A stretch of 64,000 bases of DNA from an uncultured bacterium (GTDB lineage: Bacteria; Chlamydiota; Chlamydiia; Chlamydiales; FEN-1388): positions 9,614 to 73,613 of the forward strand of contig CAZEQY010000001.1 in assembly GCA_964514655.1 (NCBI GenBank), given 5' to 3'. Every line of letters starts with the position of its first letter. Within the stretch, counting starts at the first letter, position 1. Shown in pieces: positions 16,135-17,612 of the stretch. Made by a program: the position numbers and the translations under genes. The notes under the pieces are model-generated. The model did no database searches and was not told the origin of the DNA. It saw nothing but the letters and a program-made list of their open reading frames with translations.

Positions 16135-16447
16135 TGAAAGGGGCCGGATTTTGCAACCCTTTTGAAAGCTGGGCAGCTCTAGCTAGAACTGCTCGTGCAC
16201 TCATAACATTTCGTTGTTTATTTTCACTGATTAACTGTTCAGCTGTATATGTAAATCGAGCGCACACCAAGTTGATGAGCATATCGTGTCGCAAATCGAT
16301 GTACGCCGCTCGCCAAACTACAGTCTAATGGCTCTAACAGCAAATGAATATGATTGTCATCAAGCAAAAAGCATGAATTCGGAACGCATGTTGGGGTTGT
16401 ATAAAGTAAGCACAAATCGCACGAGTCGCAGTATCCGGCCCCTTTCA
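16135..16447 (-). mobile_element. Decayed IS200-like/RAYT-type Y1 transposase element with 20-bp terminal inverted repeats and an internally deleted, frameshifted gene
   Basis: The ends are TGAAAGGGGCCGGATTTTGC (16135-16154) and the reverse complement of 16428-16447, TGAAAGGGGCCGGATACTGC (18/20 identical). Minus-strand fragments are ...CFLLDDNHIHLLLEP (a Y1 HUH-like NHxH motif) and ...ISENKQRNVMSARAVLARAAQLSKG (start of a DnaA-C-like HTH). Confidence 0.65.
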
Positions 16448-16448
16448 C

Positions 16449-17327
16449 TCAAGGCAAAATAAACACTTTGTCCATGGGCAGTCTTCCAAACCGAGTGCCA
16501 TGCATATTTGAATAGTTATTAGGTAAATGATAGACCCATGTACAGACTGGTGCAATACCTGTTTTGGCATCGATGGGCACTACGTAGCGTACCTTCCAGG
16601 GCTTCGGAATATTTTCAAAACAAAGCCCCATTGCAGCTCTTTCTTGAATGCCCCAAGTTGATACGTGTCTACTGTCATATTGACTAAAAGAGTGCGACTG
16701 TACATATTCCTCAGCAAGTTCTTGATCAAGAATAAACCCTGCCATGTATGGATTGTCTACAGTTGTAATTAGTTGATCATCTAAAAGCATGTGATGCTGT
16801 TCAGAGACTGAAGTAGGAGACCAGTTATCAGTATTTACAAATTCTTGTGTTTCATCACGAAATTCTACCCGCAAAAAAGAGGGCAAAAGGCCGTAGGGGC
16901 GAAGAATTTCTCGATATTCAAGAAAGTAGCAAAAATTTTGCCAGCTAAGCTCCATATCGTCTTCGAGATAGATAAAGTGGGTATGTTCGCTTTGTAAAAA
17001 TTCGTCCTTAATTATTTCTTTGTGGCACCAGGTAAGTGCCAATGGATCAGCTAAATGCGGATAGGTTCTTATGTCTATTGGAGTTGTAGAGCAAGCGTTA
17101 CGTAGCATCTCATGCTTTTCATCATCTTCTGTATTTGTCACAATAATAACTTTAATCTTAGGAAATTTGCTAAGCGCTGCCACAACTTGCGATAGGTACT
17201 TTAGCCTTGCAGAGTTGTAATGAGCCGTTATTGCCACGAGAACATCAGTCTTACTTGGCTCTATGCCATATAAATTCGATGCAATAAACGAGAGTGTGAG
17301 AAAAATGAGGTTGTGTATTTTTTGCAT
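16449..17327 (-). CDS. Hypothetical secreted or anchored protein with a GT-A-like DXD motif (possible glycosyltransferase)
   Basis: N-terminal hydrophobic segment MQKIHNLIFLTLSFIASNLYG. VLVAITAHYNSARLKYLSQVVAALSKF-PKIKVIIVTN, then FIYLEDDME (DXD-like). Its stop codon lies 1 nt from the element end at 16447. Confidence 0.55.
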   Translation of the reverse strand: MQKIHNLIFLTLSFIASNLYGIEPSKTDVLVAITAHYNSARLKYLSQVVAALSKFPKIKVIIVTNTEDDEKHEMLRNACSTTPIDIRTYPHLADPLALTWCHKEIIKDEFLQSEHTHFIYLEDDMELSWQNFCYFLEYREILRPYGLLPSFLRVEFRDETQEFVNTDNWSPTSVSEQHHMLLDDQLITTVDNPYMAGFILDQELAEEYVQSHSFSQYDSRHVSTWGIQERAAMGLCFENIPKPWKVRYVVPIDAKTGIAPVCTWVYHLPNNYSNMHGTRFGRLPMDKVFILP

Positions 17328-17379
17328 GATTTGCCTTTTTTGCCTTTTTGGTCACGATCATACGCTAACTGAAAATTAT

Positions 17380-17612
17380 TGAAAGTGGCCGGATTTTGCG
17401 ATTATGAGATTTGGCTTTTCACCAACTCATCAATGATGTCTCGTAATATAACATCCTTGGTTGCTAGAGTTCCTAAACGAGAAAGTGTACCTGGGTGTTT
17501 TTTAAGGGCTCTACTCACGTCGCTAAGATTTAACCCTTTTGAAAGCTGGGCAGCTCTAGCTAGAACTGCTCGTGCACTCATAACATTTCGTTGTTTATTT
17601 TCACTAATTTTG
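17380..17612 (-). mobile_element. Second, 5'-truncated copy of the same transposase element (3' end only)
   Basis: End TGAAAGTGGCCGGATTTTGC (17380-17399). The minus strand reads ISENKQRNVMSARAVLARAAQLSKGLNLSDVSRALKKHPGTLSRLGTLATKDVILRDIIDELVKSQIS*, a DnaA-C-like HTH tail. Positions 17532-17605 are 74/74 identical to 16155-16228. Confidence 0.65.

Follow-up and report, generated by a model that had tools for sequence, protein, structure and literature searches.

The region between ~14.8 and ~19.5 kb of the 64-kb stretch of DNA analysed here (the window) very likely holds non-functional TIRtron remnants that now probably act as a recombination substrate, i.e., it is an unremarkable case of a known class, in a state of decay. 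The TIRYT/TIRtron class was described by Di Nocera, De Gregorio & Rocco (2013), whose account of it gives GGGGWSAS ends, a motif common to some terminal inverted repeats (TIRs) only (PMC3733652); its equivalent in Quentin et al. (2018) is the TnpA_REP-like subclass 2.1, subgroup 2.1.2 with Bac_DnaA_C (PMC6006769). The features of the region are as follows; residue numbers refer to the intact relative P0003 (311 aa).

14822..14863, +, solo TIR (remnant 3): core TGAAAGAGGCCGGATACCG then TTTCATGTGCGATTTGCTCGG; 84% identical to L168 771-806
16135..16154, -, 3' TIR core of copy 1; the two usual following 8-mer boxes were lost through a 132-nt deletion
16155..16285, -, start of the DnaA-like HTH domain of copy 1; P0003 residues 226-269, 89% identical
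16155-16232, one arm of a 78-nt direct repeat, inside the HTH piece of copy 1
16260..16390, -, HUH-motif fragment of copy 1; residues 44-87, NHIHLLLEP; frameshift near 16360-16370
16391..16447, -, 5' TIR and first part of the 5' UTR of copy 1; core plus 8-mers TGCGACTC and GTGCGATT
16449..17327, -, 292-aa gene; signal-peptide-like N-terminus, invariant YLEDD motif, full-length C-terminus
17380..17412, -, 3' TIR of copy 2; core plus 8-mers TGCGATTA and TGAGATTT; overlaps the stop codon at 17402-17404
17405..17612, -, C-terminal HTH fragment of copy 2; ~residues 244-311, 82-83% identical to P0003/P0004
17532-17609, second arm of the 78-nt direct repeat, within the HTH fragment of copy 2
19521..19541, +, remnant 4; repeats 21 nt of the inner part of remnant 3 exactly; second recombination junction (J2) of the sister-strain cycle
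19542..19580, no strand assigned, small inverted pair: GGGTCAGA, 23 nt, then TCTGACCC(C)

The 20-nt end motif TGAAAGGGGCCGGATTTTGC has three matches in the window, against 0.02 expected from shuffles, at 16135-16154 (+, exact), 16428-16447 (-, 18/20) and 17380-17399 (+, 19/20). The original prediction of two decayed copies bounded by inverted ends agrees with the deletions, frameshift and inverted ends that we find, and much of its detail holds as well. The inverted 20-bp ends of copy 1 (16135-16154 and 16428-16447) match at 18 of 20 positions, and the 74/74-nt block common to both copies is the exact run within the direct repeat 16155-16232 / 17532-17609, which matches at 77 of 78 positions. 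The copies lie in direct orientation, and the gene at 16449..17327 is separated from the copy-1 end by 1 nt and from the copy-2 end by 52 nt, as had been noted. A deletion of about 130 bp in copy 1 right inside the end motif proves to be the loss of the equivalent of 17400-17531 (132 nt), and the predicted frameshift and deletion (~427 nt) ahead of the start of the DnaA-C-like HTH in copy 1 are both present. The two repeat arms have different, specific flanks, fitting independent deletions. Tandem duplication as the source of the two copies was considered and rejected because the sequences beside the two 3' ends are unlike.

Copy 1 (313 nt) has kept both ends and lost much of its interior: residues 1-43, 88-225 and 270-311 are absent, in addition to the frameshift. 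The ~427-nt internal deletion joins the HUH piece to the HTH piece and removed the catalytic tyrosine region (RYIHLNP). The HUH motif NHIHLLLEP is encoded at ~16350-16325 (-); the piece carrying it had been taken for N-terminal, and its position in the intact 311-aa protein shows it to be internal. On the 5' side, the start codon has gone together with codons 1-43, leaving a gap of ~180 nt relative to L001 and ~170 nt relative to L168. Because the 5' end is of the L168/P0012 lineage, with 93% identity, this gap may be a junction of two elements and not a simple deletion. The body has 90.6% (16285-16158) and 89.5% (16385-16273) DNA identity to the full element in L001. Copy 1 is a mosaic: its 5' end comes from one lineage, its body and 3' end from a second. 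A terminator-like hairpin overlaps the copy-1 end. TCAAG adjoins both ends of this copy, a single case.

Copy 2 is truncated near 17612, so that the 5' end and residues 1-243 are missing and just the last ~68 codons are retained; its DNA identity to the full element in L001 is 89.5% over 228 nt (17609-17382). A promoter and terminator scan gave counts not above those of shuffles, and hence there is no sign of copy 2 supplying a promoter. For the window fragments as a whole, identity to intact genes of 300-311 aa is 83-89% at the protein level and ~90% at the DNA level. Both copies have lost the start codon as well as the catalytic tyrosine and are therefore dead: neither can transpose or encode a transposase. 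Given the deletion of the catalytic Tyr in both, they are pseudogenes of a family member and not functional members.

Identification of the raw fragments needed relatives, since Pfam on the fragments alone gave sub-threshold HTH matches at most: the copy 1 HTH fragment reached E=0.0016 for Bac_DnaA_C, and the 69-aa window fragment with the HUH piece had no Pfam match. The stitched window fragment as query returned 2 matches; the reconstructed full-length protein returned 2,117 homologues, most of which carry PF01797 and PF08299 in precomputed annotation. The comparison with these two families that had been called for thus gave similarity via intact relatives, with P0003 scoring 38 bits for Y1_Tnp (cut-off 23) and E=4e-4 for Bac_DnaA_C, the latter below the gathering score of 31.5. 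The HUH motif (N-H-x-H), the catalytic Tyr and a DnaA-like Arg are all invariant in the family alignment, and the family profile matches DnaA domain IV (E=3.6e-6) and 4ER8 (E=8.8e-4) in the PDB. An AF2 model of the intact relative P0003 (pLDDT 88.8) has 4ER8 as its top Foldseek match, followed by hits that include 2XMA and 2A6M, and its C-terminal domain matches 3PVP with a TM of 0.78. The pairing of a Y1 transposase with a DnaA-C-like HTH, as originally predicted, is thus upheld by the Pfam score of the intact relative, the fold matches and the protein identity of the fragments. The contigs of many intact relatives are ~1.05 kb long and stop at the element ends, a pattern resembling that of an insertion sequence. 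Two frameshifts in the L001 gene are probably long-read errors and not decay, since an exact intact counterpart exists (P0003) and both shifts fall in homopolymer runs.

Three related remnants had been overlooked at first reading (14822-14863, 19521-19541 and 19542-19580). Remnant 3 has the terminator of a 714-aa gene on one side and the 3' end of a BadF-like gene on the other. The small pair at 19542..19580 is an end pair of a second TIRYT lineage: its right arm, taken with GTTAATCC, is identical at 19 of 20 positions to the end array of that lineage (L001 7170-7189). Altogether, at least five remnants from ~3 lineages are found inside 5 kb.

The present role of the remnants can be judged from one sister strain. 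L170, a single de Bruijn-graph contig from another sample (SRR26839107), is 99.8% identical to the window and lacks exactly one 1,377-nt repeat unit, made up of the 292-aa gene with the 5' half of copy 1 on one side and the tail of copy 2 on the other; positions 16233-17531 are missing from the contig, and at 16229 it carries the copy-2 allele. The crossover lies within the 74-nt identical tract of the 78-nt repeat, i.e., in an internal coding block and not at the element termini. The ends of L170 are identical over 30 nt, and the contig closes via the 21-nt remnant repeat into a 3.3-kb cycle that holds the neighbouring BadF-like and 579-aa genes. Either a circle or a tandem array would give such a cycle; a segment of that strain between exact 30-nt repeats is a less likely source. 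For the 1,377-nt indel, pop-out loss and Campbell-type gain of a 1,377-bp circle yield the same two structures. The absence of this exact unit from a near-identical strain fits recombination between the two remnants: crossing over within the 74-nt tract would remove or add the unit, and the 21-nt remnant repeat would close the 3.3-kb cycle. The only effect that the data suggest, from one sister contig, is that the remnants provide dispersed homology for host recombination.

The gene between the copies had been called cargo-like. That it is flanked by them is clear; that it is cargo is doubtful. It is possible to picture a composite or cassette unit in which the 292-aa gene is moved by the copies, or by an intact TIRYT elsewhere that acts in trans on their ends, and several observations lean that way: the direct-orientation copies adjoin the gene closely, its GC content is ~39% (window mean 43.8%), its distribution is patchy with a best homologue at 49% identity, the unit is absent in the sister strain, and the neighbouring remnant-bounded segment forms a closed cycle. 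However, the sister-strain junction is internal to the elements, the catalytic Tyr is missing from both copies, copy 2 lacks a 5' end, and neither element contains the gene, which has a 3' end on one side and a 5' end on the other. Moreover, no TIRYT gene is present near the two homologues of the 292-aa gene that were checked elsewhere. Composite transposons built from Y1 elements are not known. Taken together, we regard the composite unit as improbable. The gene is complete; its protein has weak, sub-threshold similarity to glycosyltransferase families, and we predict an accessory glycosyltransferase-like gene between two remnants, not transposon cargo. It is likewise a slim chance that an intact TIRYT elsewhere uses the ends of the dead remnants in trans, excising and reinserting neighbouring genes as circles. 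If it did, cassette-like gene shuffling in chlamydia-like bacteria would have given rise to both the 3.3-kb cycle and the 1,377-nt indel, with the DnaA-like HTH reading the lineage-specific 8-mer pair.

We next consider whether the elements are TIRtrons or belong with the REP-associated systems. The intact genes in L001, L003, L084, L085 and L168 are flanked by inverted ends, and among 40 distant full-length loci most have flanking inverted repeats, usually starting GGGGTCAG, GGGGACG or GGGGCCGG. In the lineage of the window, the ends begin TGAAAGGGGCCGG, followed by two tandem 8-mers (TGCGATTn), and the 3' end overlaps the stop codon; a tandem 8-mer pair is present in 46% of ends across the relatives, versus 2% of controls. 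The TIR core GGGGCCGG matches GGGGWSAS at 6 of 8 positions, and the GGGGTCAG or GGGGACGC of most relatives do fit it. A consistent target-site duplication, one of the features that the original prediction had proposed to look for at the element ends, was not found at four full elements.

The copies had been labelled IS200-like/RAYT-type with REP-like ends. A classical RAYT/REP system would be a domesticated, single-copy REP-associated tyrosine transposase spreading flanking REP hairpins, and a case can be made for it: the catalytic domain is nearest to TnpA_REP, with REP_Tyr_transpos (NF047646) the best NCBIfam model (E=1e-17) and 4ER8 the best fold, the flanking repeats are inverted, and L085 has a REPIN-like 69-nt doublet. 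However, the REP_Tyr_transpos score of 64.3 bits is below the cut-off of 80. Single-end folding as DNA gave -0.8 to -4.6 kcal/mol for six ends (z -0.3 to +1.3), no better than shuffles and without a hairpin, and a search of the 64 kb for the end motif found no copy beyond the remnant cluster, which includes the diverged solo end at 14824. The clustering of remnants from several lineages is also not the pattern of a single-copy domesticated gene, and the many ~1.05-kb contigs of intact relatives are insertion-sequence-like. The IS200 model (NF033573) does not match P0003, and a paralogue reaches 19 bits against a cut-off of 55. Since the ends are unfolded, the motif is undispersed in the 64 kb and the REP score is sub-cut-off, we replace the earlier label by TIRYT/TIRtron and consider a classical RAYT/REP system very unlikely. 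Finally, it is scarcely credible that the duplicated block is a regulatory or RNA element under conservation, or that the arrangement arose from faulty assembly of the source contig. In favour of these readings, that contig (285 kb) is a draft, another assembly has another arrangement and the hairpin overlaps the copy-1 end; but the block codes for part of a known protein family, with 89-91% DNA identity to an intact gene, the Rfam scan gave no matches, promoters and terminators are no more numerous than in shuffles and the flanks of the two arms differ specifically. A tRNA scan was empty as well.

The preferred reading is that of decayed TIRtrons. A TIRtron is a mobile element of ~1.05-1.15 kb encoding one protein, TIRYT, which consists of an N-terminal RAYT (TnpA_REP)-type Y1/HUH single-strand DNA transposase domain, a linker and a C-terminal DnaA-domain-IV-like HTH. 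By analogy with IS608 and TnpA_REP, the HUH/Tyr domain of an intact element may cut and rejoin one strand at the G-rich core, and the HTH domain may recognise the lineage-specific 8-mer pair; no target-site duplication would be made. As annotation, the finding is routine, being pseudogenised copies of a described mobile-element class. It does document TIRtrons in chlamydia-like genomes, both clustered and nested, and provides a concrete case of dead transposon fragments at the edges of gene presence/absence between near-identical strains. The ends of the relatives in addition have a regular layout, in which two lineage-specific 8-mers follow a conserved G-rich core; this is a testable target for the DnaA-like domain (candidate duplex TGCGATTATGCGATTT).

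Among known systems, the IS200/IS605 TnpA proteins (IS608, ISDra2) have the same Y1 HUH fold, and the lack of a visible target-site duplication is as expected for peel-and-paste single-strand transposition. They differ in having subterminal hairpins, no TIRs and no DnaA-like domain. E. coli TnpA_REP (4ER8) is the best structure and sequence match to the catalytic domain and shares the HUH motif, the single catalytic Tyr and a gene bracketed by inverted repeats; however, it is ~165 aa long without an HTH domain, and its repeats are GTAG-tagged hairpins in hundreds of copies, whereas the ends in the window are unfolded and undispersed there. Copy 1, the 69-nt end doublet of L085 and a ~170-nt doublet in L168 resemble non-autonomous derivatives such as REPINs or MITEs. 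Unlike these, copy 1 lacks the 8-mer boxes of the 3' end, has ends of two lineages and shows no sign of copying. The C-terminal 90 residues superpose on DnaA domain IV (3PVP / 1J1V) at ~2 Å (TM 0.78), and in the PDB alignment the invariant Arg falls at the position of the Arg that is conserved in the DNA-binding domain of DnaA. Unlike DnaA, there is no AAA+ domain, and the likely target is the lineage-specific 8-mer pair and not TTATCCACA.

The closest likeness is to the published TIRYTs. The copies in the window differ from these in being deleted, frameshifted and mosaic, with the core GGGGCCGG in place of GGGGWSAS, and the tandem 8-mer pair in the ends and tandem core amplification were not found in the descriptions of TIRYTs in PMC3733652 and PMC6006769. 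According to those descriptions, the class shares with our elements a ~310-aa RAYT-like Y1 HUH protein with a C-terminal Bac_DnaA_C-like HTH, encoded between TIRs, not REPs, with a G-rich end core, a 3' end that may overlap the gene, and ends that are sometimes dimers or clusters. The range given there for the class comprises PVC-group bacteria, Acidobacteria and Deltaproteobacteria.

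A motif search of the window gave three matches to a 20-nt end motif, against 0.02 expected from shuffles:

16135, + strand: 20-nt end motif TGAAAGGGGCCGGATTTTGC
16428, - strand: the same motif, 18/20
17380, + strand: the same motif, 19/20

A 78-nt direct repeat (16155-16232 versus 17532-17609) is 77/78 identical, and 132 nt present in copy 2 (17400-17531) are absent between the end motif and the repeat block of copy 1. The two copies flank a 292-aa ORF (16449-17327, minus strand), with gaps of 1 nt and 52 nt to the respective end motifs. The inverted 20-nt ends, the direct repeat, the deletion of about 130 bp in copy 1 and the flanked gene of the original prediction are all borne out by the sequence. 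The 132-nt deletion junction and the terminal inverted repeat (TIR) core at 16141-16159 (minus strand) form a terminator-like hairpin with a T-rich run after it, located 3' of both the 292-aa gene and the remnant of copy 1; terminator-like sites in the remnant region are no more numerous than in shuffles.

A Pfam search of raw window fragments gave almost no matches, and a query stitched from fragments returned only 2 partial proteins, one of which pointed to L001, a locus holding a fuller element. Here, a Y1_Tnp ORF is followed by an HTH ORF, with 3 tandem copies of AAAAGGGGCCGGACTTTGC upstream and 3 inverted copies downstream of the gene. Taking two homopolymer frameshifts out of the L001 gene (4483-5417) yields a 311-aa protein that is exactly the database protein P0003, from a short-read assembly. 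Since both frameshifts are in homopolymer runs and the exact intact protein exists, they are probably long-read indel errors; a second L001 paralogue (7297-7947) may contain errors of the same kind. P0003 matches Pfam Y1_Tnp with 38 bits (threshold 23), Bac_DnaA_C below threshold and, as its best NCBIfam model, REP_Tyr_transpos with a score of 64, below the cut-off of 80. A homology search gave 2,117 family members at E<1e-5, mostly approximately 310 aa with PF01797 and PF08299, and the family alignment shows no variation in the HUH motif, the RYIHLNP tyrosine or a DnaA-like arginine. Against the PDB, the family profile finds DnaA domain IV (E=3.6e-6) and TnpA_REP 4ER8 (E=8.8e-4). An AlphaFold model of P0003 (pLDDT 88.8) best matches 4ER8, followed by the ISDra2 and IS608 TnpA structures; the C-terminal domain of the model fits onto the DNA-binding domain of DnaA at about 2 A. 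Pfam, profile, fold and L001 homology thus establish the family identity and domain folds, and show that the protein had been correctly predicted to be a Y1 transposase with a DnaA-C-like HTH.

At the DNA level, copy 2 (17609-17382) is 89.5% identical to the final 228 nt of the L001 element, and two segments of copy 1 match the same element at 90.6% (16285-16158) and 89.5% (16385-16273). Protein mapping shows that copy 1 retains residues 44-87 (frameshifted) and 226-269, and copy 2 about residues 244-311. The start codon, catalytic tyrosine and HTH tail are gone from copy 1 and all but the C-terminal tail from copy 2; with the catalytic residues lost in both, both copies are therefore dead. 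No further TIRYT-like coding sequence (Y1 transposase plus DnaA-like HTH between TIRs) is present in the window. The body of copy 1 is of the L001 type, as are the 3' ends of both copies (16135-16154 and 17380-17412; GGAyTTTGCGATTATGCGATTT type), whereas the 5' end of copy 1 (16391-16447) is of the GGATACTGCGAyTCGTGCGATTTG type found in the lineage of locus L168 (protein P0012), to the end of which 16448-16390 is 93% identical. Copy 1 is thus a mosaic, either recombinant or nested.

The cluster contains further remnants:

14822-14863: solo end, from end-motif search and comparison with relatives
19521-19541: exact copy of the inner 21 nt of the solo end, from repeat search
19542-19580: inverted pair of the GGGGTCAGACC core of a second TIRYT lineage, adjoining the preceding remnant

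The inverted pair is 19/20 identical to L001 7170-7189, and in L001 the second lineage also adjoins the first. This brings the count to 5 remnants from about 3 lineages inside 5 kb, more than originally noted. Different TIRYT lineages nest into one another's ends, and comparable nesting is seen in L001 and L168.

A search with the adjacent BadF-like protein led to a 3,331-nt Logan contig from a sister strain (SRR26839107_367289, here L170), 99.8% identical to the window (14843-19541) with 6 SNPs. L170 connects 17532 straight to 16232 via the 78-nt repeat; 16233-17531, and with it a 1,377-nt unit including the 292-aa gene, is missing. The contig has the copy-2 allele at 16229, placing the crossover within 16155-16228. 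Since assembly was done with k=31, the 74-nt exact repeat would break the contig if both paths existed, so that the gene-bearing path is absent or rare in SRR26839107. There are thus two alternative structures, with the remnant repeats marking the edges of the indel between the strains; either pop-out loss or Campbell-type gain of a 1,377-bp circle would give the same structures. For the window remnants, providing homology for recombination would be the sole present relevance.

The first 30 nt of L170 equal its last 30 nt, giving a 3,301-bp cycle in which 19520 is joined to 14864 via the 21-nt repeat. As 21 nt is shorter than k-1, this junction should occur in real reads, and the cycle suggests that the sister strain has the BadF-like and 579-aa genes on a circle or in a tandem array. 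The cycle could also stem from a flanking repeat in the sister strain, but this repeat would have to be exactly 30 nt long by coincidence. The 579-aa gene is one of two large genes adjoining the remnant cluster (12624-14768 and 17681-19420); the products of both have signal-peptide-like N-termini and resemble polymorphic membrane proteins of chlamydiae, and the 579-aa protein has no match in Pfam.

The 292-aa protein is complete at its C-terminus compared to seven homologues and has no Pfam family above threshold. Its family has no name; members are about 290-350 aa long, share invariant TNT, YLEDD and HLPNxY motifs, often lie in clusters of similar genes and are scattered over unrelated lineages (Parachlamydiaceae, Magnetococcales, where it is fused to Sel1 repeats, Bradyrhizobium and Mycobacterium simiae); the best homologue is 49% identical. 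The GC content of the gene is about 39%, versus a window mean of 43.8%. The neighbours of two homologues examined are similar hypothetical genes and genes for methyltransferase and toxin-antitoxin functions; neither homologue has a TIRYT gene close by. The suggestion that the 292-aa gene is cargo finds no support.

The same ends occur in inverted orientation at intact relatives (L003, L084, L085 and L168), and most of the 40 distant full-length loci compared, which span many phyla, have flanking inverted repeats, usually starting with GGGGTCAG, GGGGACG, GGGGCCGG or GGTGCCGG. Four full elements show no consistent target-site duplication, which fits a Y1 mechanism. These ends are TIRs, not REPs: single ends fold no better than shuffles, no TGAAAGGGGCCGGATTTTGC-type motif lies outside the remnant cluster in the window and the REP_Tyr_transpos score is sub-threshold, so that the REP/RAYT label is not supported. 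Two facing ends with little or nothing between them, REPIN- or MITE-like, are seen at L085 4776-4844 and L168 about 366-538; of these, the L085 doublet is 69 nt long and has a folding energy of -24.3 kcal/mol (z=-6.2). Elsewhere (L001 4329-4392 and 5420-5486, L002 7-132, L168 625-800 and 1825-1885), the outer end core is tandemly amplified 3-7 times in units that begin at TGAAAGGGG (TAAAAGGGG in L001), each cut off at variable length, as if insertion or excision had recurred at one terminus and left footprints. Logan contigs of 1,010-1,110 nt carry dozens of intact homologues; of these contigs, L003 and L169 were inspected, and both start and stop within TIRs. At element ends the assembly graph seems to branch, as would be expected of multi-copy elements or end arrays.

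The end architecture of the family, established from L004-L085, L001, L168 and the window (16408-16447 and 17380-17412), is a conserved G-rich core followed usually by 2 tandem copies of a lineage-specific 8-mer, most often with period 8. Tandem identity is at least 7/8 in 46% of 70 ends; among 740 random 28-mers the figure is 2.2% (p about 1e-24, with the paired ends of an element not being independent samples). Intact elements would move through single-strand cleavage by the HUH/Tyr domain at their G-rich core, and the DnaA-like HTH may recognise the 8-mer pair. As a candidate target of the HTH, this pair is better than the GGGG core, which is described as unlike a DnaA box by Quentin et al. 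(PMC6006769). The portions available of that paper and of PMC3733652 contain no mention of an 8-mer pair at the ends. The elements described here match the published TIRYT/TIRtron class (PMC3733652) and subclass 2.1.2 of Quentin et al., whose proteins have a Bac_DnaA_C-like extension and whose genes had no REPs in their vicinity (PMC6006769). The window element is a decayed, mosaic member of this already known class.
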